64,000 bases of DNA from Escherichia phage B9-1, in sequence record OQ420740.1, one strand, 5' to 3'. Position 1 is the stretch's first letter. Every line of letters begins with the position of its first letter. The notes beneath the pieces are model-generated. The model did not search any database, was not told the origin of the DNA, and was given only the letters and a program-made list of their open reading frames with translations. Of the stretch, positions 2,535-41,245 are shown in pieces. The position numbers and the translations under genes are program-made.

Positions 2535-2545
2535 GAGGAGGTGTT

Positions 2546-2860
2546 GTGGAGTTGGATTTGGCGGCATTGTACGGTATCTGCATGGGTACCGTTGTCCCGA
2601 TCTGTGTATGGGCTTTCAACCAGTGGCACACCAAATGGAAAGGCATTTCCAAGAGGTTGGATGAGCTGGAGAAAGACCTCATTTTAGTGAAAAATAGCAT
2701 GGTTACAAAAGATAGACTTGATTCCATTATTGAAACCCGGTTAAGTAAGCTAGAGGCTGATATCAACGACCTTAAGCAAGATGTCAGGACAGATGTCTCC
2801 GGTATCAGAGCTGATGTGCAAAAGATTTTACACATGCTTGTAGAGCATAGTAAAAGGTAA
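2546..2860 (+). CDS. hypothetical membrane / coiled-coil protein
   Basis: 104 aa; GTG start just after SD AAGAGGAGG; N-terminal hydrophobic helix then charged heptad-like segment; followed by terminator hairpin. Confidence 0.5.
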   Translation: MELDLAALYGICMGTVVPICVWAFNQWHTKWKGISKRLDELEKDLILVKNSMVTKDRLDSIIETRLSKLEADINDLKQDVRTDVSGIRADVQKILHMLVEHSKR

Positions 2861-2870
2861 ACAAAGGCCA

Positions 2871-2903
2871 GAACGGCAAGGATGCCGTTCTTGCATTTTG
2901 TTC
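2871..2903 (+). terminator. rho-independent terminator
   Basis: 8-bp stem GAACGGCA/TGCCGTTC with AGGA loop followed by TTGCATTTTGTT. Confidence 0.6.
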
Positions 2904-2950
2904 TCTAAAGTGTTAAAATAGTCCTTAAGGAATTTTCTCAGGAGAACGTG

Positions 2951-3994
2951 ATGACTAAACCAGTTATCCCTCTTGATATTTGGGCCAATCAGGATGTTGT
3001 GCTTGAAAATACGGGAGAATTGAATAAGTCCCAACCAAAAAAAGAAGAGAGATTGAAAGGTTGGGATATGACACAAAGAGTGGCATGTGAAGTTGTTAAC
3101 TTTGAACTTCACATGCTTTCTGCGTGGTTAAAGCATTTAACAGAAGATGTTGTCCCAGGATGGGATAATAGATTCTTAAGGGTCACTAATAATCTGGCAG
3201 ACGTTCCAGACAAAGCTGCTGCACGTCAAGTTCTCAATGTATACTCGCCTGAAGAAATGGATGACCTTTATGTTGACAAGACTGGAGACACAATGATCCA
3301 GACTCAAACTTTAGGTCTTCAAAGAATTGAGTTTGCATCTGCGTCAACAGACAATGCGGCGATATACACCACCATAACTCCAGACAAGACGATGATGGAT
3401 TTCTGGATTATGGACAACATCGGTGGCGCTGACGGCACAGACCTTGATGATCCTTCTCACCAAATAGACGGTTTCCGTTGGAGATTTCAACCTTCTGGTG
3501 GGCAGCCTGTGTTTTCGGCTATGAAGCTCAATGCTATAACTGCCAACCGTGCAAGACTGGCTATCCAAGGAAATCTTGAATGCAATGATGCAAAAAGCTC
3601 CTCTGCAAATGCCAATGCGGTAACGATACCAAGAGCCACTGTTAATGGACAACAATCCTGCGGCAGCGCTCAAATAGGTGGAAGAGTAGATTGTAACGAT
3701 AAAACCGCCAGGGGTCAATATGCAACAGTTGGTGGGAGAAACGTGGTCCGCAGGGTAAATGGTAGTAGCGCAGATAGCAGTGGTAACCTTACTATCCCTA
3801 TGCCTAGTAGGGGTGTTGAAGATGTAAGGATAGCAAACCGTTTCAGAACCACCTACAGAGAATCAAGAGTATACCCTGGGCATGTAATGTGCTCCGGCAA
3901 TTACGCCTATAAACACCCGTATCAAGGTGACTATTGGACTGGTGCTATTCAAAAATTTGTAAACGGTCAATGGATCACGATATCTTATGCTTAA
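2951..3994 (+). CDS. tail fibre protein, paralog B
   Basis: 347 aa from ATG 2951 (SD GGAG 6 nt upstream; track ORF begins at GTG 2948); conserved N-terminus and C-terminus (QKFVNGQWITISYA) shared with 895..1935, divergent central region. Confidence 0.6.
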   Translation: MTKPVIPLDIWANQDVVLENTGELNKSQPKKEERLKGWDMTQRVACEVVNFELHMLSAWLKHLTEDVVPGWDNRFLRVTNNLADVPDKAAARQVLNVYSPEEMDDLYVDKTGDTMIQTQTLGLQRIEFASASTDNAAIYTTITPDKTMMDFWIMDNIGGADGTDLDDPSHQIDGFRWRFQPSGGQPVFSAMKLNAITANRARLAIQGNLECNDAKSSSANANAVTIPRATVNGQQSCGSAQIGGRVDCNDKTARGQYATVGGRNVVRRVNGSSADSSGNLTIPMPSRGVEDVRIANRFRTTYRESRVYPGHVMCSGNYAYKHPYQGDYWTGAIQKFVNGQWITISYA

Positions 3995-25475: not shown

Positions 25476-26681
25476 ATGATTTTCATCTACGAACATTTCA
25501 AAACTCGTAAAGAAGCACGTGACCGCCGTGCAGAACTTGAGAAGAAGGGTTTCACATGCGCTATTGAGAAAGGTAACACAACCTGGACACTGGCAGTAGG
25601 TGCCCCAGAGTTGTTCGATCCTGACCGTGACAGCGTCTGCTACACCCGTGAGGATTTTGAAACCCGTGAAGAGGCCCGTTTATTTCGATATGGGCTGGAA
25701 GATAACGGTAAGTACGCCATGATCTTAGATTTAGGAGAAGGTTCCGTTAAACGTTGGGGTGTGGTATATCCACTGTGTGTTGTTCACGGTGTAGGGTTCA
25801 CTGGGGTAGCAATCAAGTCAGAAGAACCTTTAGTAGAAGTAAAAGACCCGGTGCTGGAGGTGGTGAGCAGTGTGTCTCAGCAACAGACCCGAAGCATCGA
25901 GCCTTTGGTGGTTATTTGCGGGGAACTCCTCCAGATCACCTGCAACGAAGGTATTTTTGAAATTCGCCGCAGTGAAAGTGAGGAAGTTTACCAGAAAGTC
26001 TTCGACCATATCTCTGTTCAGGAATATGACGAGGCAATTGGTGAAATCCTTGTCTGGCTGGAACGCAAGAATGAGTTCACCACACTTGCAGACAACCTGA
26101 TCATGAAAGATGGTAAGCTCTACTACTACGGTGTAGAGATGCGATCCACCATTGCAAAGAAAATTGAGAAAGATTATGCAGACGGAACACTGGATGACCG
26201 CTATGTGAAATTCCTCGTTCGCCTGCTACGCAATCCTTCTGCAAAATCTGTAAACATGCTCTACGATTTTATGCAGGCAAACGACATTCAGATTGCAGAA
26301 GATGGTCGAATCATTTGCTACAAAGGGGTTCAGTTTAACGGCGACAAGTGGGTGGATTGGCACAGTGGTAAAGTCCCACAATACCAGGGGGCTTTTGTAT
26401 CCATGCCTCGTAACTTTGTAGAGGATGATCCGGAAGCTGCATGCTCTTATGGCCTGCACTGTGCCAGCAAAGAGTATGCAAAGAGCTACGGAACTGTGAT
26501 GACGGTTATGGTTGACCCTGCCGATGTAGTTAGTGTACCTTACCAACACAACAGCGCCAAGTGCCGTGCATGCCGCTACGAAATCGTAGTAGCTCCAGAA
26601 TCGCGCAAAGATGGCGACCCAATTGAGTACGTGGTTGACCGCGACGGTAATACTATCGACATTATCTACGAGGAGGCGTAA
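25476..26681 (+). CDS. hypothetical protein (rIIB-like by position only)
   Basis: ATG 25476 with SD AAGGAGA (track start 25440 overlaps the upstream gene); two ~35-aa N-terminal repeats (TRKEARDRRAELEK / TREEARLFRYGLED). Confidence 0.55.
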   Translation: MIFIYEHFKTRKEARDRRAELEKKGFTCAIEKGNTTWTLAVGAPELFDPDRDSVCYTREDFETREEARLFRYGLEDNGKYAMILDLGEGSVKRWGVVYPLCVVHGVGFTGVAIKSEEPLVEVKDPVLEVVSSVSQQQTRSIEPLVVICGELLQITCNEGIFEIRRSESEEVYQKVFDHISVQEYDEAIGEILVWLERKNEFTTLADNLIMKDGKLYYYGVEMRSTIAKKIEKDYADGTLDDRYVKFLVRLLRNPSAKSVNMLYDFMQANDIQIAEDGRIICYKGVQFNGDKWVDWHSGKVPQYQGAFVSMPRNFVEDDPEAACSYGLHCASKEYAKSYGTVMTVMVDPADVVSVPYQHNSAKCRACRYEIVVAPESRKDGDPIEYVVDRDGNTIDIIYEEA

Positions 26682-28051
26682 TGGAAAAAGGGCAGTACGA
26701 TGTAGGCACAGATGCTGCCCTTGTTGCAATCATGAGCGGTGAGAATGTCTTCGTAAGTGGACCTGGTGGAACCGGGAAGACATATCTTATCAACATGATC
26801 CAGTCCATGTATGGAGACTCTTGCATAACGGTTGCCCCGACAGGGGTAGCCGCTTTAAACGTTAATGGAGCAACAGCGCACCGAACTTTCGATCTTGCCG
26901 CAGGTGTGAGCATGGAGTCAGACTGGACAGCAATAAGGGCAAAAACAGCAAAGCCTCTGAAAAGCAAGGCATTTACCATCCTGATTATCGATGAAATCTC
27001 TATGATCCGTGCTGACAAGTTCATAGAGATGGATAGAAAACTCCGCTTTCTTCGGAAAAATGACAAACCTTTCGGAGGCATTCAGGTGTTATTGTTTGGA
27101 GATTTCTACCAAGCACCTCCAGTTGTCTCTTCTATGGAGAAAGAAGCCTACTTCAACTTCTACCACACAGACCTGTGTTGCTATACAGAATCTTGGGAGG
27201 ATCTTAATCTTCACAACATAGCCTTAGTAGACCAGTTCCGTCAGGAATCTGTTCGCTTCGCCACAATGTTGAACTGTGTTCGTGAAGGTCGTCGCATAAA
27301 AGAGGTTGTAGCAGAGCTTAACACTCGTTGCTATCATGGTGGTGTCCCAACAGATGCCTTGACCATCTGTGCCACCAATAAGCAAGCAGAGGAGGTGAAC
27401 AGACGTTTCTATGATGCCATCAAGGCCCCAGAGAAGACCTACATTGGTAAAATGAAAGGTAAGTTCCCTTCCACACTACCTGTGGAGCAGGAAATGAGGC
27501 TGAAGATAGGGATGAAGGTTATGATAACCTCAAACGATGTTGACCCTACTCACAAAGTTCCGTATTATGTTAACGGGACACGTGCCACAGTGGTAAAATT
27601 CAAGACCAAATCCGTAGTAGTTGAGCTAGAAGACGGAACACAGGTTGAAATTGAGCCAAGATTGTGGGAGAATAACGAGTACAAACCTTCCCAGAGGTAC
27701 AATATTGCCGAAAGGAAGATGGAGAAGTTCATAGAGAGGGTTGTGATCGGGTCTTATGAGCAACTTCCTTTGAAATCTGGGTACGCAGTAACATCGCATA
27801 AAAGTCAAGGACTTACGTTAGATTGTTACAACCTAGACCTCGGAAAGAACGGAGCTTTCTCTCCCGGAATGACGTATGTTGCCTTGAGTCGGGTTAAGAC
27901 GATACAAGGAATAAACTTGTTGCGTCCATTAAGAGAGGTGGATATTATTGTTGACCCGAGAGTCGTAGAGTTTTATAATACAACTTTCCCTGGCTTAGAC
28001 GAGAAAGTCAGGAAAGATTTTGAAACTAGAGCAGAAAAGGGGGACGTATGA
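26681..28051 (+). CDS. dda: Dda-like SF1 DNA helicase (RecD/Pif1-like)
   Basis: 456 aa; Walker A GPGGTGKT, Walker B IIDEISM, C-terminal helicase motifs (VTSHKSQG, YVALSRV). Confidence 0.75.
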   Translation: MEKGQYDVGTDAALVAIMSGENVFVSGPGGTGKTYLINMIQSMYGDSCITVAPTGVAALNVNGATAHRTFDLAAGVSMESDWTAIRAKTAKPLKSKAFTILIIDEISMIRADKFIEMDRKLRFLRKNDKPFGGIQVLLFGDFYQAPPVVSSMEKEAYFNFYHTDLCCYTESWEDLNLHNIALVDQFRQESVRFATMLNCVREGRRIKEVVAELNTRCYHGGVPTDALTICATNKQAEEVNRRFYDAIKAPEKTYIGKMKGKFPSTLPVEQEMRLKIGMKVMITSNDVDPTHKVPYYVNGTRATVVKFKTKSVVVELEDGTQVEIEPRLWENNEYKPSQRYNIAERKMEKFIERVVIGSYEQLPLKSGYAVTSHKSQGLTLDCYNLDLGKNGAFSPGMTYVALSRVKTIQGINLLRPLREVDIIVDPRVVEFYNTTFPGLDEKVRKDFETRAEKGDV

Positions 28052-31097: not shown

Positions 31098-31862
31098 TTG
31101 AAATTTATCTACAAAGAACACTACCACAAAGGTGTTGTGTGGAGTCTATTTGACGGGTCTGGTGGTGCAGTTATTGACTGGGCAAAAGCTGGATATCTGT
31201 GCCTGTGCTTTAACGCAGAAGGTGCTGACCATGGCAGTTATGCAGAGGTGATAACCGATCATCCCAACATTCACTACGTGGATTATTGGATTGACCCGTG
31301 GTTCCCTCAAGAAACTTTTTGCATGTACCCAGCTCCAGACTTTATTCTTGCATTTCCTCCGTGCACGCATTTAGCAGTATCAGGTGCTGCACATTTTAAG
31401 AAAAAGCTGGCTAAGGACCCTCTGATTCAAATTAATGCTGTAAAAGATGCTCGGGTTGCAGAAGAGTTGGGAGAGATTTACGATTGCCCGTGGCATGTAG
31501 AGAATCCTGTGGGAGTTATGTCCACACTGTGGCGAAAACCTGATTACCGTTTTCATCCTTCAGATTATGGCGGGTATTTACCGGAGGATGATGTAAACCC
31601 CTGGTTTCCTGAATTTATAGCTCCACGGGATGCCTACCCAAAAATAACTTGCGGTTGGATAGGCAATGGATTTATAATCCCCGCCACAAAACCTGTCCCG
31701 CAAATAGTTGATGTGGTTAGTGGTTATTCCATGCAACACGCTAAGCTAGGTGGAAAGAGTGCAAGGACGAAGATGATTCGAAGCCTTACACCACGTGGCT
31801 GGGCAAGAGCTGTATTCTTAGCAAACGAGCCTGCAGTAAGGAGAAGAATTAATGGGCAGTAA
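31098..31862 (+). CDS. C5-cytosine methyltransferase-like protein (minimal catalytic domain)
   Basis: TTG start after SD AGGAGA; ordered motifs LFDGSGG (motif I-like), FPPCTHLAVSG (PC, motif IV-like) and ENPVG (motif VI-like); only ~255 aa with no obvious target-recognition domain. Confidence 0.45.
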   Translation: MKFIYKEHYHKGVVWSLFDGSGGAVIDWAKAGYLCLCFNAEGADHGSYAEVITDHPNIHYVDYWIDPWFPQETFCMYPAPDFILAFPPCTHLAVSGAAHFKKKLAKDPLIQINAVKDARVAEELGEIYDCPWHVENPVGVMSTLWRKPDYRFHPSDYGGYLPEDDVNPWFPEFIAPRDAYPKITCGWIGNGFIIPATKPVPQIVDVVSGYSMQHAKLGGKSARTKMIRSLTPRGWARAVFLANEPAVRRRINGQ

Positions 31863-33930
31863 ATTCATGGCATCTGCATACAACCGTTTCGGTGAGCCAA
31901 ACCCGAAAGCAACTAAGTATAAAAGTGGGGGAAGTGTGAAACGAGACTATCGTGATGAAAAAGAAGTTGAAACTGTAGAGACTGTTTTAGAAAATACTAA
32001 AATTGTCCCTGTTCCACAACAAAATATTGGACTGATGGCTGCACAATATTTTGGTGTACGATCATCGCTATCCCAAGAGGATGGTGTAACTGTTACTGCC
32101 ACCTACTTTCCGTATTACGACCGCTACGGTAATCTATCTGGCTTTAAAAAGCGTGACTGGACAATCCCTAAAGAGCAAAGGGGCCATTTCTCGGTTGTCG
32201 GCATAGTAAAGGCCAACTCCCAGATGTTTGGTCAAAAGCTGTGTGCATCCTCCAACAACCGCAAGCAGATTAACGTTTGTGAGGGGGAAGGGGATGTTAT
32301 TGCAGCGTGGCAGGCTGCATATCAGGTACAAGTAAAAGGAATTCTCACCAATGCTAAAGCCCCAGCGAAGGTGAAGCAGTGGGCTAAAGAAGTCCAGGAT
32401 GGGATCGATGCAGTTATCAACGGCGGCGATCTTGCAGGAAAACCATGCCTGCCTTTTGTTGGAATTAACTGCGGGTGTGCAAACGCAGTAGACACTTTTG
32501 CGAACAATGAGAAATTTATCCGTAGCTACGGAACAGTAGTCCTTGCAATGGACAACGATGCAGCTAACGAGGTAGAGAAGCAAAAACACGTTATCAAAGG
32601 TGTTGAAGCTACGCATAATATCGCAGCATTTTTGATGGCTGACAACGTTTACCACGTGGAATACCCAGGTGAGGTAAACGACCCTGATGGTGTAAAAGAT
32701 ATTCGTGACATGCTGAAGGCTAAAAAGCTGGAAGATATTGTCAACATGTTCCGTCACCCAGTCAAATATGTGCCTGATGCTGTATCTGATTTAGAAGACT
32801 TCTCCATTGAATCTCTTCGTAAGAAGACTTCCAATGGCGTGGATATTAGTGCAGAGTTCCCTAAACTGCAGAAGATGCTGAAAGGACTCCACAAAGGCAC
32901 CTTGATGATGCTGACAGGCCCGTCTGGCGGTGGTAAAACAACTGTAGCCAAGAAGCTGGAACATTGCATTGCAAGATACTTGATGGATCCAACATGCCCT
33001 AAAGCTGATGATTATGAAGAGGATGATCGCCTGTGCCTGATTCACCTTGAAGAGGATCCTGAGGAAGCAATCAACTCTCTGTACGCTAACCAGCTGGGGT
33101 TTGATGTTAAAGAGTTTGTTGAAGACCCCAGTCAGTTCCTGACCGATCAGGAGCACGCTGAGATTCATCAATCTTGGGCCAAGGCCGGAAAAATCAAAGT
33201 GTTCAAGCATTTCGGCTCCATCCCTGTAGATGAGCTGATCACTAAGCTTAAACAAATGGTGTGCCTGTATCACTGCCGTTACATTGTGCTGGATCACTTG
33301 TCTATGGTGATTTCAGGGCTTAATGTTAAGGATGAGCGTAAAGAGCTTGACATGGCTATGACTCAACTAGCCGCGTTCTGTAAGCAGTTTAATGTGTTTA
33401 TCTTGGTGATTGCTCACCTGAAGCGCACAGAGATTGTACCTCCGAAGGATAAGGATGGAAATCCGTTACCTTTCTGGTACCCTGTACGAAAAGAGAACCT
33501 TCGCGGTAGTGCCGGATTGGAGCAACTTAGCTGGGTGGTTGTCGGGGTAGAGGCAGAGGAGATGGTGGATCGTTCCCGTGGACGTGTCCGACTGGTAGGT
33601 CTTAAAAACCGCCCAGCAAAAACCTTAGGTATTGCGGACACTCTAGTTATGGATCCTCACACAGGCAAGTTCCATGATGCCAGCAACTGGTACTGGGACA
33701 AAGAAATGCAGATGTTTACAGACGGGGAAGGTGGGGAGGTTGTTTGGAGACCTCAGGCTATGTTTGAGGATCAGGAGCATGCAGTTGTAGAAACACCTGT
33801 GGGCAAGGTTGTGGCTGATAAGGTTGTAACTCCTACTGTTAACCCTGTTGACACACAGGAAGACCTTCAGTATGATGATCCGTCCTCTAACCACGTTCCG
33901 GGTTTTGAAGACGACGAAACACCTTTTTAA
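31852..33930 (+). CDS. DNA primase-helicase (TOPRIM + DnaB-like helicase)
   Basis: 692 aa; TOPRIM signatures VCEGEGD and LAMDNDAAN; helicase Walker A GPSGGGKTT and Walker B IVLDHLS. Confidence 0.7.
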   Translation: MGSKFMASAYNRFGEPNPKATKYKSGGSVKRDYRDEKEVETVETVLENTKIVPVPQQNIGLMAAQYFGVRSSLSQEDGVTVTATYFPYYDRYGNLSGFKKRDWTIPKEQRGHFSVVGIVKANSQMFGQKLCASSNNRKQINVCEGEGDVIAAWQAAYQVQVKGILTNAKAPAKVKQWAKEVQDGIDAVINGGDLAGKPCLPFVGINCGCANAVDTFANNEKFIRSYGTVVLAMDNDAANEVEKQKHVIKGVEATHNIAAFLMADNVYHVEYPGEVNDPDGVKDIRDMLKAKKLEDIVNMFRHPVKYVPDAVSDLEDFSIESLRKKTSNGVDISAEFPKLQKMLKGLHKGTLMMLTGPSGGGKTTVAKKLEHCIARYLMDPTCPKADDYEEDDRLCLIHLEEDPEEAINSLYANQLGFDVKEFVEDPSQFLTDQEHAEIHQSWAKAGKIKVFKHFGSIPVDELITKLKQMVCLYHCRYIVLDHLSMVISGLNVKDERKELDMAMTQLAAFCKQFNVFILVIAHLKRTEIVPPKDKDGNPLPFWYPVRKENLRGSAGLEQLSWVVVGVEAEEMVDRSRGRVRLVGLKNRPAKTLGIADTLVMDPHTGKFHDASNWYWDKEMQMFTDGEGGEVVWRPQAMFEDQEHAVVETPVGKVVADKVVTPTVNPVDTQEDLQYDDPSSNHVPGFEDDETPF

Positions 33931-33988: not shown

Positions 33989-36766
33989 ATGAGCATGTGG
34001 TCGTTCGATTTTGAGGCCTCTGGCCTGCTGGAAGACCCAGATCTTTATTATCACTGCGGTTTGTTTAAAGAGCTGAATAAGAACCGTTTTATGCTGTTCC
34101 TTCCTCTAAATGACCGCACACACTACTCTGAAGAGGATGTGGAGAAAGCTAAGAACTTCATTCTGGCAAAGAAGACCCTTTATACAGATTTTGATGTTCG
34201 CATAGCAGATTTTTCAGAGTTGGAGGGTTGGCTTACAGGTAACTCAGACTGGTCACCTACAGCTTTGAACTGTCATAACTGCTACAGCTACGACTTTATG
34301 CTAATGGAGAGATTATCCGGTATTCATTTTGATATGTTCCGTGATCCTAAATGCATGGGGACTATCAACGACCACCAGGTTAATCTGTTCGATACGTTAG
34401 CAATGAGTCGAATCTTGTGGCCTGACCGCCCTTTGCCAAAAGGTTGTCCGGACGCAGTATTTAATCCAGTTACCAAGAAAATGCAGCCTGTTGGGCCTCA
34501 TGGCCTTATGGCATGGGGCTATGCCCTTGGTAACCAGAAAGTTCAAATCGATGACTGGCGTGAGCTTCCGCTGTGGAAGTATGTGGATCGTGTGTTCGAG
34601 GACGTTATCATTCAGGAGTTGCTCTGGAAGGAGTTGGTAGCTGAATCAAAAGGTGTATTCTACGGCAAATCTGACATGCAGAACTTTATGTACGATCCTG
34701 CCAAAGAGAAGCCGAAAGGCTTCAAGAAGATCACCTGGAAGAACGCATTACGCCGAGGCATGTTACAGCACTTCCTGATGGAGCTGCAGGCTCGACAGGG
34801 GGTGTATTTCGACATAGATGGGGCTATTGCTCTACGTGACCGTTGCGATGCGTGGATGAAAGAGATCGCTGATCGTGTTGAACCACAACTCCCTTTAAAA
34901 GAGCTATCAATGTCTCAACGGCCTAAGTTTCCTGAAAAGCCGTTTAACCAGGATGGGACAATCTCCAATAATGGTTGGAAATGGTTAAAAGACAAGCTTG
35001 GCTACCCTGTGGACATGAGTGCTTTAGAGTTCAAAGCTCCTCCTAAGCGAGCATTTACCTCCACAGGGGATGTAAGTAAGATGGGGATAAAATGGTGTGA
35101 AGAGATGGGCTGTAAAGACCCCGATAAGATGGCTGATTTCTTGAGGGGGTATATCAAAGGAACTTCTACACCACACCCTTTACCTAAAGAGCTGATGGAT
35201 CAGGCGATAAGTGACCTACAGCAGAAGCGAATGCCTGACTGCAAGATACCTATGAAAATCAGCAATCAGGACGACATCAAGCGATACCTGATCAGTGCTG
35301 GTTGGCTCCCAACAATGTGGAGAACTAAGGATGTAACTAAGGACAGCAAGAAGAAAGCTTTACCTGATGCAGATGTTGATGCACGAGTATATGCATATAT
35401 GGACGAGCTTTTGGAGTCAGAGTATTGTGACCTAATTATCAACTTCTGGAACAAAACTGATGCTAAGTTCCAGACAACTGTACATAAGTTCAGAAGCTTC
35501 CCTAACTCTGAAAGAATTAAAAAGGAAGTGTTCGGGAAAATACGTAGAAAAGCCAGAGCGCTTATTACTTCTCCGCAACTGAAAGATACGTTTGGACACC
35601 TATGTCCGAATCTTGAAAAATTGAACGGAGAGATGGCTAAAGATATCGTTTTGTGGTTATCATTGCGAAACCGCAGATCGGTCCTTGATCCAATCAAGGA
35701 AGATAAGGTCGATACTGGTCTTCTTAATCATCCACGTTTGAAGATTGACCACAAGCTTCCTGCTAAAAGTTCTGGATTAACAAACACTTCCAGACAGAAA
35801 CATAGTATTTGTGCAAACATGCCTAAACCATCTCCTAAAGTGGTTATGGGTAAAGAGATGCGTAGTCTGTGGGGTGTTCCTCCGGGATACTTTGAGATCG
35901 GTATTGACGGGTCCAACTTAGAGCAGCTCATCGGGGCCTGGGGTGCCTTTGAGTTTGACAACGGTCTGTATTATGATGTTGTAAGTAACGGGGACGCGCA
36001 CCAAAACAATGCTGAGGCATATACAAAAGTAGCAGGTAGAGAGGTGTCTCGTAACGATGGTAAACCTATCACGTATGGGGTTATGTATGGGGCACAAAAA
36101 GATAAAGTTGCAGATATGCTGGATATCTCTCCAGAACTGGGGCAGAGAGTAATTGATGCTCTCTGGGATGCCAACCCAGGTCTTAAGGGGCGCAAAGAGG
36201 ATCTGGAGAAATTCTGGGAAGCAACAGGTAAGAAATTTATCTACTCTTTTGACGGGCATGCCATTTGGACCCGCTCTAAACACTCTTTGCTTAATGCATA
36301 TCAGCAAAATGGCGGTGCATCGTTGTGCGACTTGGTCGGAATCCTCATGCACCACCAAATGGTGAAGCGTGGATGGTATGATGAAGGTGTTCGTCGTATT
36401 ATTTATTACCATGACGAATATCAGCTTCAAGTGCCTGACACCCCTAAGTATAAAACTGTATACACCTTCGACACAATTGAAGAGCTGGAAACATTTAAAG
36501 CCCAACAAGAGGCTAAACTTCATGTGTTCGACGGTCATAAGTACAAAAAGGCACGCAAAGATGAGGACGGAAACGAAGTGGTTGACAAGGACGGAAATAC
36601 GGTATACGATCCTATCTTGAACGATGACGGAAAGCTTGAACTTATCTGGAGCCCTGTGGGCGAAATGGTGGTGCATTGCTTCTGGCAGGCTTCTAAAATG
36701 ATGGGCGTTCCGTTCCAGATCACAGGTGAATACTTGTGCGGTCGTAACTGGGGCGATTGTCACTAA
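33989..36766 (+). CDS. DNA polymerase, family A (Pol I-like)
   Basis: 925 aa; exonuclease-like FDFEASGL near the N-terminus; motif A GIDGSNLEQL, motif B KPITYGVMYG, motif C YHDE. Confidence 0.75.
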   Translation: MSMWSFDFEASGLLEDPDLYYHCGLFKELNKNRFMLFLPLNDRTHYSEEDVEKAKNFILAKKTLYTDFDVRIADFSELEGWLTGNSDWSPTALNCHNCYSYDFMLMERLSGIHFDMFRDPKCMGTINDHQVNLFDTLAMSRILWPDRPLPKGCPDAVFNPVTKKMQPVGPHGLMAWGYALGNQKVQIDDWRELPLWKYVDRVFEDVIIQELLWKELVAESKGVFYGKSDMQNFMYDPAKEKPKGFKKITWKNALRRGMLQHFLMELQARQGVYFDIDGAIALRDRCDAWMKEIADRVEPQLPLKELSMSQRPKFPEKPFNQDGTISNNGWKWLKDKLGYPVDMSALEFKAPPKRAFTSTGDVSKMGIKWCEEMGCKDPDKMADFLRGYIKGTSTPHPLPKELMDQAISDLQQKRMPDCKIPMKISNQDDIKRYLISAGWLPTMWRTKDVTKDSKKKALPDADVDARVYAYMDELLESEYCDLIINFWNKTDAKFQTTVHKFRSFPNSERIKKEVFGKIRRKARALITSPQLKDTFGHLCPNLEKLNGEMAKDIVLWLSLRNRRSVLDPIKEDKVDTGLLNHPRLKIDHKLPAKSSGLTNTSRQKHSICANMPKPSPKVVMGKEMRSLWGVPPGYFEIGIDGSNLEQLIGAWGAFEFDNGLYYDVVSNGDAHQNNAEAYTKVAGREVSRNDGKPITYGVMYGAQKDKVADMLDISPELGQRVIDALWDANPGLKGRKEDLEKFWEATGKKFIYSFDGHAIWTRSKHSLLNAYQQNGGASLCDLVGILMHHQMVKRGWYDEGVRRIIYYHDEYQLQVPDTPKYKTVYTFDTIEELETFKAQQEAKLHVFDGHKYKKARKDEDGNEVVDKDGNTVYDPILNDDGKLELIWSPVGEMVVHCFWQASKMMGVPFQITGEYLCGRNWGDCH

Positions 36767-39546: not shown

Positions 39547-39957
39547 ATGGTGTCTCCTTTATGTTGTTCAAATAAAATCGGAGATTCCACAATGGAACAA
39601 ATGAACGATCAAACGTCGGTTGCGATGAACGGGCAAGAACAACCTCAAGAATTTTTCTTAGGGTTAAGCAAAGATCAAGTGTCTCTTCTACTAGTGCTTT
39701 CTTCTTTCATGGGAAGACTTCAGGAGCTTACACAACAGCCAGAGGCTGAACAATTATTCCAGGCTCTGCGTGAAGAAGAAAAATATCGCCGTTTGGACTA
39801 TGCCTTAGGTTGGGTAGCTCAACAACGAGATATGCTGATGGCCCTCTCTGGGACCACGAGTTTTGCAATGGGCCTGTTGGCTCAAGTTCAGGACAAATTA
39901 ATTCAAGCAGGGTTTGCACACACGGCAAACACTAACGAAGAACAAGGAGATAAATAA
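39547..39957 (+). CDS. hypothetical protein
   Basis: 136 aa, SD AAGGAGA. Confidence 0.5.
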   Translation: MVSPLCCSNKIGDSTMEQMNDQTSVAMNGQEQPQEFFLGLSKDQVSLLLVLSSFMGRLQELTQQPEAEQLFQALREEEKYRRLDYALGWVAQQRDMLMALSGTTSFAMGLLAQVQDKLIQAGFAHTANTNEEQGDK

Positions 39958-41183
39958 TGAGCGTTATTCAACAATTCGCTAACCCGATGAATCCGCGTGA
40001 AACTGTTTTACTGGCTCACGGCATGATTAAACGTGTCAGCATCAAGCCTATCAAAGGTGCTGATCCTACAACAGGTATTAAAACCACTGTGTGGCAAGGT
40101 AAGAAAATTGAATCCAGCCACACCATCTCTTTACTGATTTCTGAACTGGACTCCTCTGATAACCTGCTCCAAGGTGGTGAAGAAGTTTGGATCAGCATGG
40201 GTGATAAGCTGCTTAAGCCTGGTCATCAAGACTCCGTCTCTGTTAAAATTGATGACAAGTGGGAAACAGTAACGCCAGGATGGATCGTAAATATCCCTTT
40301 AAAGGCAAATGAGCATAACGGTAAGACCTACTACAAAGGCTCACTGGCTAAAATGGTTAAGTTGGGGGCAGGAGAGGCTCCAGCAGCTCCACAGCAACAA
40401 AAACAGCAACAAGGCACACAATCACAAGGTCAGAAGCAGAAACCTCAGCAGAATGCCAATCAGGACGTTTTACGCATCTATGGTGATGTGACTCAGATTG
40501 TTGGTAACGTGGTTACTGTCAATGACCACAAGATTGGCGAAGGTGCTATGGTTGTCTCTGATGAGCAGCTTAAAGACCTAGTGGTAGGTGGTCGTGTTGC
40601 GGCTATTGTTGACAAAGACACCGGGAATATTATCAGCGGTTTTAAAGCCTACCCGCCCAAGGCAGAGAACGGAACTCAAGGCTCTGGTGGTAAGCGTAAA
40701 TCTTCTTATGATCCTATCGGTGTAGAAACAGGACATAGCATCAATGCGTTGCAAATCATCCTGGATCGCGGGTTTAAGGTAGACAATCCTTTAGACGTGG
40801 CTAAAACACTACACGTTGTCACCATTGAGCTTAAGAAAGAGTACGCTCAAGCTACCAACCGAACTGAAGATGAAGTAGGTGCCAGTGTTGGTAATGCGGT
40901 ATTGAACGCTTGTCGCCGTATTGACAAGAAAACGAAAGTTGACGATTTTGCAGTAGCAATTACTGCAGAGGCAAAAGATGTCTTGACTAATCTTGCTGAA
41001 CCGTTGTATGATTGGATCAAGAACGGTGCGGGAGCCACTGACCATCAAGAACCTCAAGCTGCCAAACAGGAAGCTGCTCCACAGCAAAACACTGTAGACG
41101 CTCCTCCTGTAGATAATGATGAAGATGACCCTATGGATCAGAATCCGGCACAGTACGCCTTTGATGATGACATTCCTTTTTAA
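39957..41183 (+). CDS. putative ssDNA-binding protein with host SSB-like C-terminal tip
   Basis: 408 aa; two Gln/Pro-rich low-complexity linkers and a C-terminus ...QYAFDDDIPF whose last six residues equal the E. coli SSB tip DDDIPF; N-terminal fold not recognised by eye. Confidence 0.45.
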   Translation: MSVIQQFANPMNPRETVLLAHGMIKRVSIKPIKGADPTTGIKTTVWQGKKIESSHTISLLISELDSSDNLLQGGEEVWISMGDKLLKPGHQDSVSVKIDDKWETVTPGWIVNIPLKANEHNGKTYYKGSLAKMVKLGAGEAPAAPQQQKQQQGTQSQGQKQKPQQNANQDVLRIYGDVTQIVGNVVTVNDHKIGEGAMVVSDEQLKDLVVGGRVAAIVDKDTGNIISGFKAYPPKAENGTQGSGGKRKSSYDPIGVETGHSINALQIILDRGFKVDNPLDVAKTLHVVTIELKKEYAQATNRTEDEVGASVGNAVLNACRRIDKKTKVDDFAVAITAEAKDVLTNLAEPLYDWIKNGAGATDHQEPQAAKQEAAPQQNTVDAPPVDNDEDDPMDQNPAQYAFDDDIPF

Positions 41184-41198
41184 CATCTAGTTAACATG

Positions 41199-41228
41199 GC
41201 CCTGCCCGAAAGGGTGGGGCATTTTTGT
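41199..41228 (+). terminator. rho-independent terminator (copy 2 of duplicated hairpin)
   Basis: GCCCTGCCCGAAAGGGTGGGGC then ATTTTTG, identical to the hairpin at 31053. Confidence 0.65.
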
Positions 41229-41245
41229 ATATAGAGGACTGAAAA

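Follow-up and report, generated by a model that had tools for sequence, protein, structure and literature searches.

The stretch analysed here, 64,000 nucleotides of Escherichia phage B9-1 (sequence record OQ420740.1, hereafter the window), contains a gene at 39957..41183 on the plus strand whose product is probably the phage's own replicative SSB (single-stranded DNA-binding protein). It would represent a non-canonical SSB-type family, phrog_4477, in which single-stranded DNA (ssDNA) binding by oligonucleotide/oligosaccharide-binding (OB) folds is combined with self-association through a four-helix domain and with a tip identical to that of the host SSB, carried on an acidic tail. The source phage belongs to Vequintavirus and is an E. 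coli myovirus, rV5/FV3-like and about 137 kb in size. The SSB-like fold and the host C-terminal tip are already known, since a 97%-identical ortholog, Bas52_0087, was described in an April 2026 preprint (bioRxiv 10.64898/2026.04.29.721553). That description did not extend to the breadth of the family, the absence of another SSB, the tail of the primase-helicase or the alleles capped by an endonuclease gene. What the present analysis adds to the preprint is a view of the whole family, the argument from a missing SSB and the capped alleles as a test bed.

The gene and its C-terminal tip

The gene is a clean ATG open reading frame (ORF) of 408 codons. Its product ends in ...NPAQYAFDDDIPF, followed by a TAA stop, and the opposite strand of the same interval contains many stops throughout. 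The claim of the initial annotation that a 408-aa protein ends exactly in DDDIPF was thus borne out by the ORF and its translation. The last seven residues, FDDDIPF, are those of the E. coli SSB C-terminal tip, and the stop stands directly after the Phe, so that the Phe carboxylate is free. DDDIPF is given as the SSB C-terminus (SSB-Ct) (PMC5872125), and FDDDIPF has been termed C-tip-like (bioRxiv 10.64898/2026.04.29.721553). From the amino acid composition of the window, the expected number of segments ending in DDDIPF is 5.8e-6 (343 stop-to-stop segments of at least 60 aa).

39957..41183, plus strand: complete gene of the SSB-like protein, 408 aa (ORF and translation); ortholog of Bas52_0087, rV5 ORF214 and FV3_00195; phrog_4477
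41160..41183, plus strand: C-terminal tip FDDDIPF (residues 402-408) and TAA stop; uninterrupted ("empty") allele, the insertion point being taken from the alignment with rV5

The tip is the fixed point of an otherwise variable tail. In an alignment of 57 diverse members with a mean identity of 21%, P407 is present in all 57, and position 408 is Phe in 56 and Trp in one. Positions 403-405 are acidic in 84-88% of these relatives, while the tail before them diverges freely. Because the tip is conserved where the tail is not, it is under selection and is not a chance match. The same holds in a wider sample of 150 representatives with at most 50% mutual identity: 114 end exactly in -PF, 11 in PF plus a short extension (125 with PF in all) and another 11 in an acidic run followed by Phe or Trp, and most of the other C-termini resemble truncated fragments. 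Across the phrog_4477 family the tip varies between IPF, LPF and VPF. Many members carry the 11 residues PPMDFDDDIPF, which we take to be the tail of the host E. coli SSB.

Domain architecture and predicted fold

A single-chain AlphaFold2 model was built with the family alignment, and fold searches, including Foldseek, were made with it. The predicted local distance difference test score (pLDDT) is 85-90 for a beta domain at residues 1-138, about 82 for a second beta domain at 171-232 and about 92 for four helices at 253-355. Segments at about 139-170, at 237-250 and at about 358-408 are predicted to be disordered. The parts of the protein, with their isoelectric points (pI) where calculated, are as follows.

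39957..40370, plus strand: OB fold 1 (OB1), residues 1-138, basic, pI 9.1
40371..40466, plus strand: linker 1, residues 139-170, Gln-rich and disordered (pLDDT 24-33; 72% Q/P/A/G), variable in length and sequence within the family
40467..40652, plus strand: OB fold 2 (OB2), residues 171-232, a compact five-strand barrel; accessory, missing from short family members
40653..40706, plus strand: linker 2, residues 233-250, Gly/Lys-rich, basic (pI 10.3) and disordered (pLDDT below 50 at 237-250)
40707..41027, plus strand: four-helix domain, residues 251-357, where conservation within the family is highest (motifs D252, G255, G259-H260, N263, H286, G308, G312)
41028..41159, plus strand: disordered acidic tail, residues 358-401, Q/P/A/E-rich (pLDDT 27-39; pI 4.05), unconserved in sequence but conserved in its acidic and proline character

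Two low-complexity linkers had been noted from the sequence alone. They were found to be real, one Q-rich at residues 139-170 and the other Q/P/A/E-rich at 358-400, and both are predicted to be disordered with pLDDT below 50. The whole tail (358-408) has a net charge of about -12, and the layout of a basic OB1 (pI 9.1) followed by an acidic tail (pI 4.05) is typical of SSBs. OB1 also contains aromatic and basic positions conserved among the 57 diverse members, namely H55, K97, W102, H120 (Tyr or Trp in most members), K123 and Y126, which are plausible ssDNA contacts.

In the initial annotation the N-terminal domain was not recognisable as an OB fold, and structure prediction was proposed as the check. 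At the sequence level this assessment stood. Pfam returned no match for the SSB-like protein or for any of the 57 relatives, so the SSB family PF00436 was not found among them, and phmmer and profile hidden Markov model (HMM) searches of PDB sequences with the whole protein, the N-terminal domain and the helical domain gave only noise. The 25-residue tail likewise had no match among PDB sequences, a query of this length being too short. Weak matches of a few relatives to the SSB-named phrog_18154 and phrog_378 were discounted as probably driven by the tail. At the fold level the assessment did not hold: the model has two predicted OB folds, and their best structural neighbours are SSB, RPA, Stn1 and PriB, a resemblance to SSB DNA-binding domains. 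The matches include 1se8 and 2cwa, both two-OB SSBs, and several RPA subunits. The top Foldseek match was 4klk, a DUF2815 phage SSB-like protein, at a weak E-value of 0.026 and without sequence similarity.

An OB protein with a helical domain could have a different nucleic-acid role, as a RecO-like mediator or annealing factor or as an accessory of the primosome or helicase loader. RecO shares the combination of OB fold and helical domain, but it binds the SSB tip and does not carry one, and an acidic disordered tail ending in PF is a signature of SSBs. Moreover, no annealase, RecO or loader family was matched in Pfam or PHROG, and SSB, RPA, Stn1 and PriB dominate the structural neighbours, which makes such a role very improbable. 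The initial annotation had further considered a decoy carrying nothing but the tip. This was not borne out, and a pure decoy was rejected, as OB folds are present in the model.

Family distribution

The SSB-like protein matches phrog_4477 (listed as "unknown function") over residues 1-408 with E=2e-172. A word-indexed search returned 57 relatives down to 33% identity, all of which match phrog_4477. A full profile search of 1.84 billion representatives found 244 clusters (50% identity), and 169 of these had E-values below 1e-10. According to the model and the alignments, the family architecture consists of an N-terminal OB fold, an optional OB2, a four-helix domain and a disordered acidic tail ending in PF. 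It occurs in two forms, a long one of about 350-420 aa, as in B9-1, and a short one of about 260-300 aa that lacks residues 171-232.

In cultured phages the family is confined to myoviruses of 135-160 kb from the rV5-, phi92-, phAPEC8-, phiTE- and CR8-like groups. The B9-1 gene itself has 98% DNA identity to that of phage S127 BCL3 and is present in 115 phage records, where its product is labelled "hypothetical protein"; all Vequintavirus records examined use this label. A minority of depositors name homologs of the phi92/phAPEC8 type "single-stranded DNA-binding protein".

In the alignment the family also has a mosaic appearance at domain boundaries. Three relatives (P0040, P0041 and P0043) have a divergent OB1, yet their linker and OB2 are almost identical to those of the P0007-P0039 group. 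Their helical domains pair differently, that of P0040 with P0033 and those of P0041 and P0043 with P0034. Such a pattern suggests recombination inside the low-complexity linkers.

The replication module and the missing SSB

The SSB-like gene lies about 3 kb downstream of genes for a primase-helicase and a DNA polymerase and has the same orientation.

31852..33930, plus strand: DnaB/gp4-like primase-helicase ending in ...GFEDDETPF, last codons 33904-33927 (translation; Pfam DnaB_C and AAA_25)
33989..36766, plus strand: family A DNA polymerase, 925 aa, uninterrupted allele (Pfam DNA_pol_A at E=9.5e-8, below the gathering score; annotated as DNA polymerase in relatives)

A PIF1-like SF1 helicase (26681-28051, plus strand; Pfam PF05970, E=1.8e-33) is encoded directly downstream of rIIA/rIIB-like genes and gives the replication module its second helicase. 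The polymerase gene varies among relatives: in NHEP1 it has a 324-aa, intein-like in-frame insertion after residue 671, and in FV3 it is split after residue 808 by a free-standing HNH endonuclease gene. These insertions mark it as a hotspot for selfish elements in the genus.

In the complete genome of the Vequintavirus NHEP1, annotated with PHROG-style names, the entries include a polymerase, a primase/helicase and a second helicase, along with a ligase, an exonuclease and a resolvase, and no SSB is listed in this annotation. In a phmmer search with E. coli SSB, none was detected in the NHEP1 genome or in the window, and the SSB of phage morffagbaw, used as a control, was detected. The position of the gene in the replication module of a phage in which no other recognisable SSB was found, together with the OB folds, the charge layout and the orthology to Bas52_0087, supports a replicative SSB.

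Judged by its encoded proteins, the replisome is of the T7 type, with a family A polymerase and a DnaB/gp4-like helicase. In T7, gp2.5 and gp4 both have acidic Phe-terminal tails that bind the polymerase gp5/thioredoxin. The B9-1 primase-helicase also has an acidic tail with a terminal Phe, the second in this replisome, and its ortholog in Seunavirus KE23 has the tail ...DDDTPF followed by an endonuclease-borne extension. The tips of both B9-1 proteins are uninterrupted alleles that end in CCTTTT-TAA. The family A polymerase is a candidate phage-internal partner of these tails.

Such an arrangement, with a ...TPF tail on the primase-helicase, makes a phage-internal role of the tip equally plausible. 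The tail could then act mainly within the replisome in the manner of T7, with both acidic Phe ends docking on the polymerase or on each other, and identity to the host tip would stem from common chemistry or ancestry and would not mean that host proteins are recruited. This is compatible with a replicative SSB and differs from it only in the main partner of the tip; as the principal explanation of the tail it is possible but doubtful. The tails of the primase-helicase (...GFEDDETPF) and of its Seunavirus ortholog (...DDDTPF) and the T7-like pairing of polymerase and helicase all favour it, and a phage that encodes its own polymerase, helicases, ligase and nucleases would need few host replication partners. 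However, the tips of the family track the bacterial SSB consensus closely: PPMDFDDDIPF, presumably the host sequence, exceeds generic acidity plus Phe, and the IPF/LPF/VPF variation resembles that of bacterial SSB tips. A link to ExoI, a classical client of the SSB tip, from the genetics of DRT10 defence also argues against a purely internal role.

Bas52_0087 and DRT10 defence

In the preprint of 30 April 2026, Bas52_0087 was found to be SSB-like by Phold and AlphaFold2, with two OB folds, a four-helix bundle, a disordered region and an FDDDIPF C-tip (bioRxiv 10.64898/2026.04.29.721553). The same anatomy was obtained independently for the B9-1 protein. Phage Bas52, also named RudolfGeigy, has its 1227-nt gene bas52_0087 at the corresponding syntenic position. 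The two proteins are identical at 396 of 408 positions (97%) without gaps (QXV84166.1), and none of the 12 substitutions falls in the core of the tip, which reads SFDDDIPF in Bas52 and AFDDDIPF in B9-1 with the preceding residue.

Bas52_0087 was described as the trigger of the DRT10 (UG17) reverse-transcriptase defence. Two independent mutants of the BASEL phage Bas52 that escape DRT10 carried D252V or Y351C in this protein, residues placed at a putative oligomerisation interface. Further evidence showed that the dosage of ExoI/SbcB modulates the defence, with SbcB overexpression attenuating restriction, and competition with SbcB or its displacement by Bas52_0087 was raised as a possibility (bioRxiv 10.64898/2026.04.29.721553). 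Both escape residues are conserved in the B9-1 protein, where they stand at the start of helix 1 and at the end of helix 4. Position 252 is acidic in 84% of diverse members; Y351 is conserved among close relatives only.

40710-40712 and 41007-41009, plus strand: DRT10-escape positions D252 and Y351, respectively, inside the four-helix domain

These results bear on a modified form of the decoy idea, in which the protein is an anti-host factor that lures ExoI, RecQ, PriA or RecO off host SSB by titration, for instance to shield 3' ends of phage ssDNA or to shut down host repair, and the OB folds serve as mere scaffold or localisation device. Exact mimicry of the host tip fits this proposal, as do the possible competition with or displacement of SbcB and the attenuation of DRT10 by SbcB overexpression (bioRxiv 10.64898/2026.04.29.721553). 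Nevertheless, a full SSB layout is conserved in 244 clusters, and the gene lies in the replication module of a phage without another SSB found. Two OB folds and a conserved putative oligomerisation domain would be superfluous in a decoy, and alleles with a capped tip (see below) are frequent and evidently viable. An anti-host factor of this kind is therefore improbable.

An endonuclease cassette at the tip codons

Certain homologs, rV5 ORF214 among them, extend for about 15 residues past IPF (APVGLQYGKSRIHAL and variants). The B9-1 sequence past the stop of the SSB-like gene contains no trace of this extension. Read-through or frameshifting as its origin was ruled out, because the alleles differ by a ~640-bp insertion. 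Alignment with rV5 places this insertion exactly at the Phe codon, B9-1 (41160-41186) and FV3 having the empty allele. The start of the gene carried on the insertion, annotated as "endonuclease VII" (phrog_1035), lies within the extended ORF, with an overlap of 29 nt.

2544-3167 of the rV5 locus (L002): rV5 endonuclease VII gene (ORF213)
2044-2484 of locus L003: cassette endonuclease of phage morffagbaw
2610-3062 of locus L009: cassette endonuclease of Seunavirus KE23

The same junction was found 3' of a canonical ssb gene in phage morffagbaw, likewise with a 29-nt overlap. It consists there of acidic codons, CCN TTY and GCY..rTAGGwTTrCAATATG, followed by the CxxC N-terminus of the endonuclease. 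It was found again 3' of the primase-helicase gene of Seunavirus KE23, whose product ends in DDDTPF-APIGLQYANHAIYVL. The cassette, an endonuclease of VII or HNH type with an N-terminal CxxC, thus sits at the terminal Phe codon of three unrelated gene types (SSB-like, canonical ssb and primase-helicase). Its overlap with the extended ORFs is 20-29 nt, and the residues that it adds (APxGLQY...) number about 15. The presence of the cassette 3' of the tip codons in both SSB-like and bona fide ssb genes means that these gene ends are treated alike as DNA, which also speaks for an SSB. The only part common to endonucleases of different PHROG families is an N-terminal module, whose ~45 residues overlap the junction.

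The cassette also appears to be lost. In the phi92-like phage BME3 (locus L004, 3125-4072) a short-form homolog ends in DDDIPF-APIGLQYGRNFLHCF, and the next gene encodes a methyltransferase and no endonuclease; BME3 apparently retains the first ~45 nt of the cassette as a scar from endonuclease loss. A tblastn search with the 23-residue tip plus extension returned 233 phage records, many of them at genes annotated as SSB. The rV5 endonuclease (at least 80% identity) is present in 52 records, compared with about 115 Vequintavirus records with the SSB-like gene (about 45%). Among BASEL phages, DrSchubert, EmilHeitz and WalterGehring have the capped allele, and RudolfGeigy/Bas52 the free one.

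The simplest reading of these junctions is a family of free-standing putative homing endonucleases that targets tip-coding DNA. We tentatively propose, with slightly less than even confidence, that the DNA of the tip (acidic codons plus CCN-TTY-stop) is the homing site of endonuclease genes that move among non-homologous replication genes, cap the tip and decay to scars; co-conversion of the flanks might even spread the tip module. No description of an endonuclease associated with the SSB tip was found in literature searches. Because the extension buries the Phe carboxylate, alleles with the endonuclease are natural "capped-tip" variants. If the proposal is true, capped and free alleles in near-identical phages would constitute a natural experiment on the function of the tip, including the triggering of DRT10. 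For such a comparison of capped and free tips, the text and supplementary figure legends of the preprint contain no per-phage DRT10 sensitivities.

Proposed mechanism

As the replicative SSB of the phage, the protein would bind ssDNA at the T7-like replisome through the basic OB1, aided in the long form by OB2, and would self-associate through the four-helix domain. The long disordered acidic tail would present the terminal FDDDIPF. Pockets of SSB-Ct partners have in common a basic rim and ionic binding of the carboxylate of the terminal Phe (PMC5872125). Because FDDDIPF equals the host SSB tip, it could dock into such pockets in ExoI/SbcB, chi, PriA, RecQ, DnaG and others via its Phe carboxylate and acidic residues. 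It may also dock on the phage polymerase and primase-helicase, like the acidic Phe-terminated tail of T7 gp2.5. What DRT10 senses, as a by-product, might then be the SSB-like protein or the change that it causes in ExoI and ssDNA metabolism. A hub of this type depends on a free Phe carboxylate after acidic residues, which on the predicted C-termini the B9-1 allele has and rV5-type alleles do not. The earlier proposal of a phage SSB that hijacks the host SSB interactome is retained in its first part, an SSB with the host tip; the hijacking itself we infer, and the modulation of DRT10 restriction of Bas52 by SbcB dosage bears on it indirectly.

Several observations weigh against this proposal. 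None of the searches with Pfam, phmmer, profile HMMs or PDB sequences provided a sequence-level link to any characterised SSB family. Both DRT10 escape mutations lie in the helical domain, outside the tip and the OB folds, and the genetics therefore does not implicate the tip. In addition, Bas52_0087 expressed alone did not trigger DRT10 (bioRxiv 10.64898/2026.04.29.721553). The extension of about 15 residues in rV5 and in ~52 of the ~115 records should remove the free-carboxylate contact used by partner pockets, and, as capped alleles are abundant, viability does not require a free tip.

Comparison with known SSBs

E. coli SSB has 178 aa and tetramerises through its single OB fold. It has in common with the B9-1 protein the order of OB module, low-complexity disordered linker and acidic tip FDDDIPF, and the logic of an ssDNA coat that doubles as a protein-recruitment hub is likely common to both. 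The folded parts, however, have no detectable sequence homology to E. coli SSB (PF00436), and the B9-1 protein, at 408 aa, has two OB folds and a four-helix domain per chain instead of a single OB fold.

T7 gp2.5 and DUF2815 proteins (PDB 4klk, 4jg2) provide a second comparison, that of an OB-fold SSB encoded by a phage and paired with a family A polymerase and a DnaB-like primase-helicase. In both T7 and B9-1 the SSB or SSB-like protein and the helicase have acidic tails ending in Phe. Unlike the B9-1 protein, gp2.5 has one OB fold, no helical domain and a tail that differs from the host tip. Polypeptides with more than one OB fold also occur in Deinococcus/Thermus SSB and in eukaryotic RPA. 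In contrast to these, OB2 of B9-1 is small and set off by a disordered linker, most family members do without it, and a helical domain is added.

Recognition of phrog_4477 as a replisome SSB-type protein would fill an annotation gap and add about 244 clusters to the non-canonical SSBs. In collections for therapy and biocontrol, wide use is made of the large lytic phages from the rV5, phi92 and phAPEC8 groups. Phage SSBs repeatedly act as triggers of bacterial immunity, and how defence systems sense phage ssDNA metabolism could be probed through the tip, the four-helix domain and the capped alleles.

Flanking signals and neighbouring genes

An AAGGAG Shine-Dalgarno sequence lies 7 nt 5' of the SSB-like gene, and the ATG shares one base with the TAA stop of the upstream ORF (TAATG), an overlap that is likewise annotated in FV3, rV5 and Bas52. 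This overlap suggests translational coupling of the two. The upstream ORF overlaps the SSB-like gene in this way in all relatives examined, and its 121-aa product may be a partner of the SSB-like protein.

39592..39957, plus strand: small upstream ORF of phrog_7310 (unknown function), orthologous to bas52_0086 and 121 aa long when read from the ATG at 39592
39944..39959, plus strand: translation start of the SSB-like gene, with AAGGAG at 39944-39949 and ATG at 39957-39959 (direct sequence reading)
41199..41230, plus strand: intrinsic-terminator-like hairpin (GCCCTGCCC-GAAA-GGGTGGGGC) and T-run directly 3' of the SSB-like gene; the best terminator-like site of the region, identical in FV3 and rV5

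Across the SSB-like gene, 16 records titled "Campylobacter phage" (host C. jejuni; e.g., MG065635, MG065654 and MG065666) have 93-98% identity to E. coli Vequintaviruses. These host labels seem doubtful and perhaps reflect contaminating coliphages or mislabelling.

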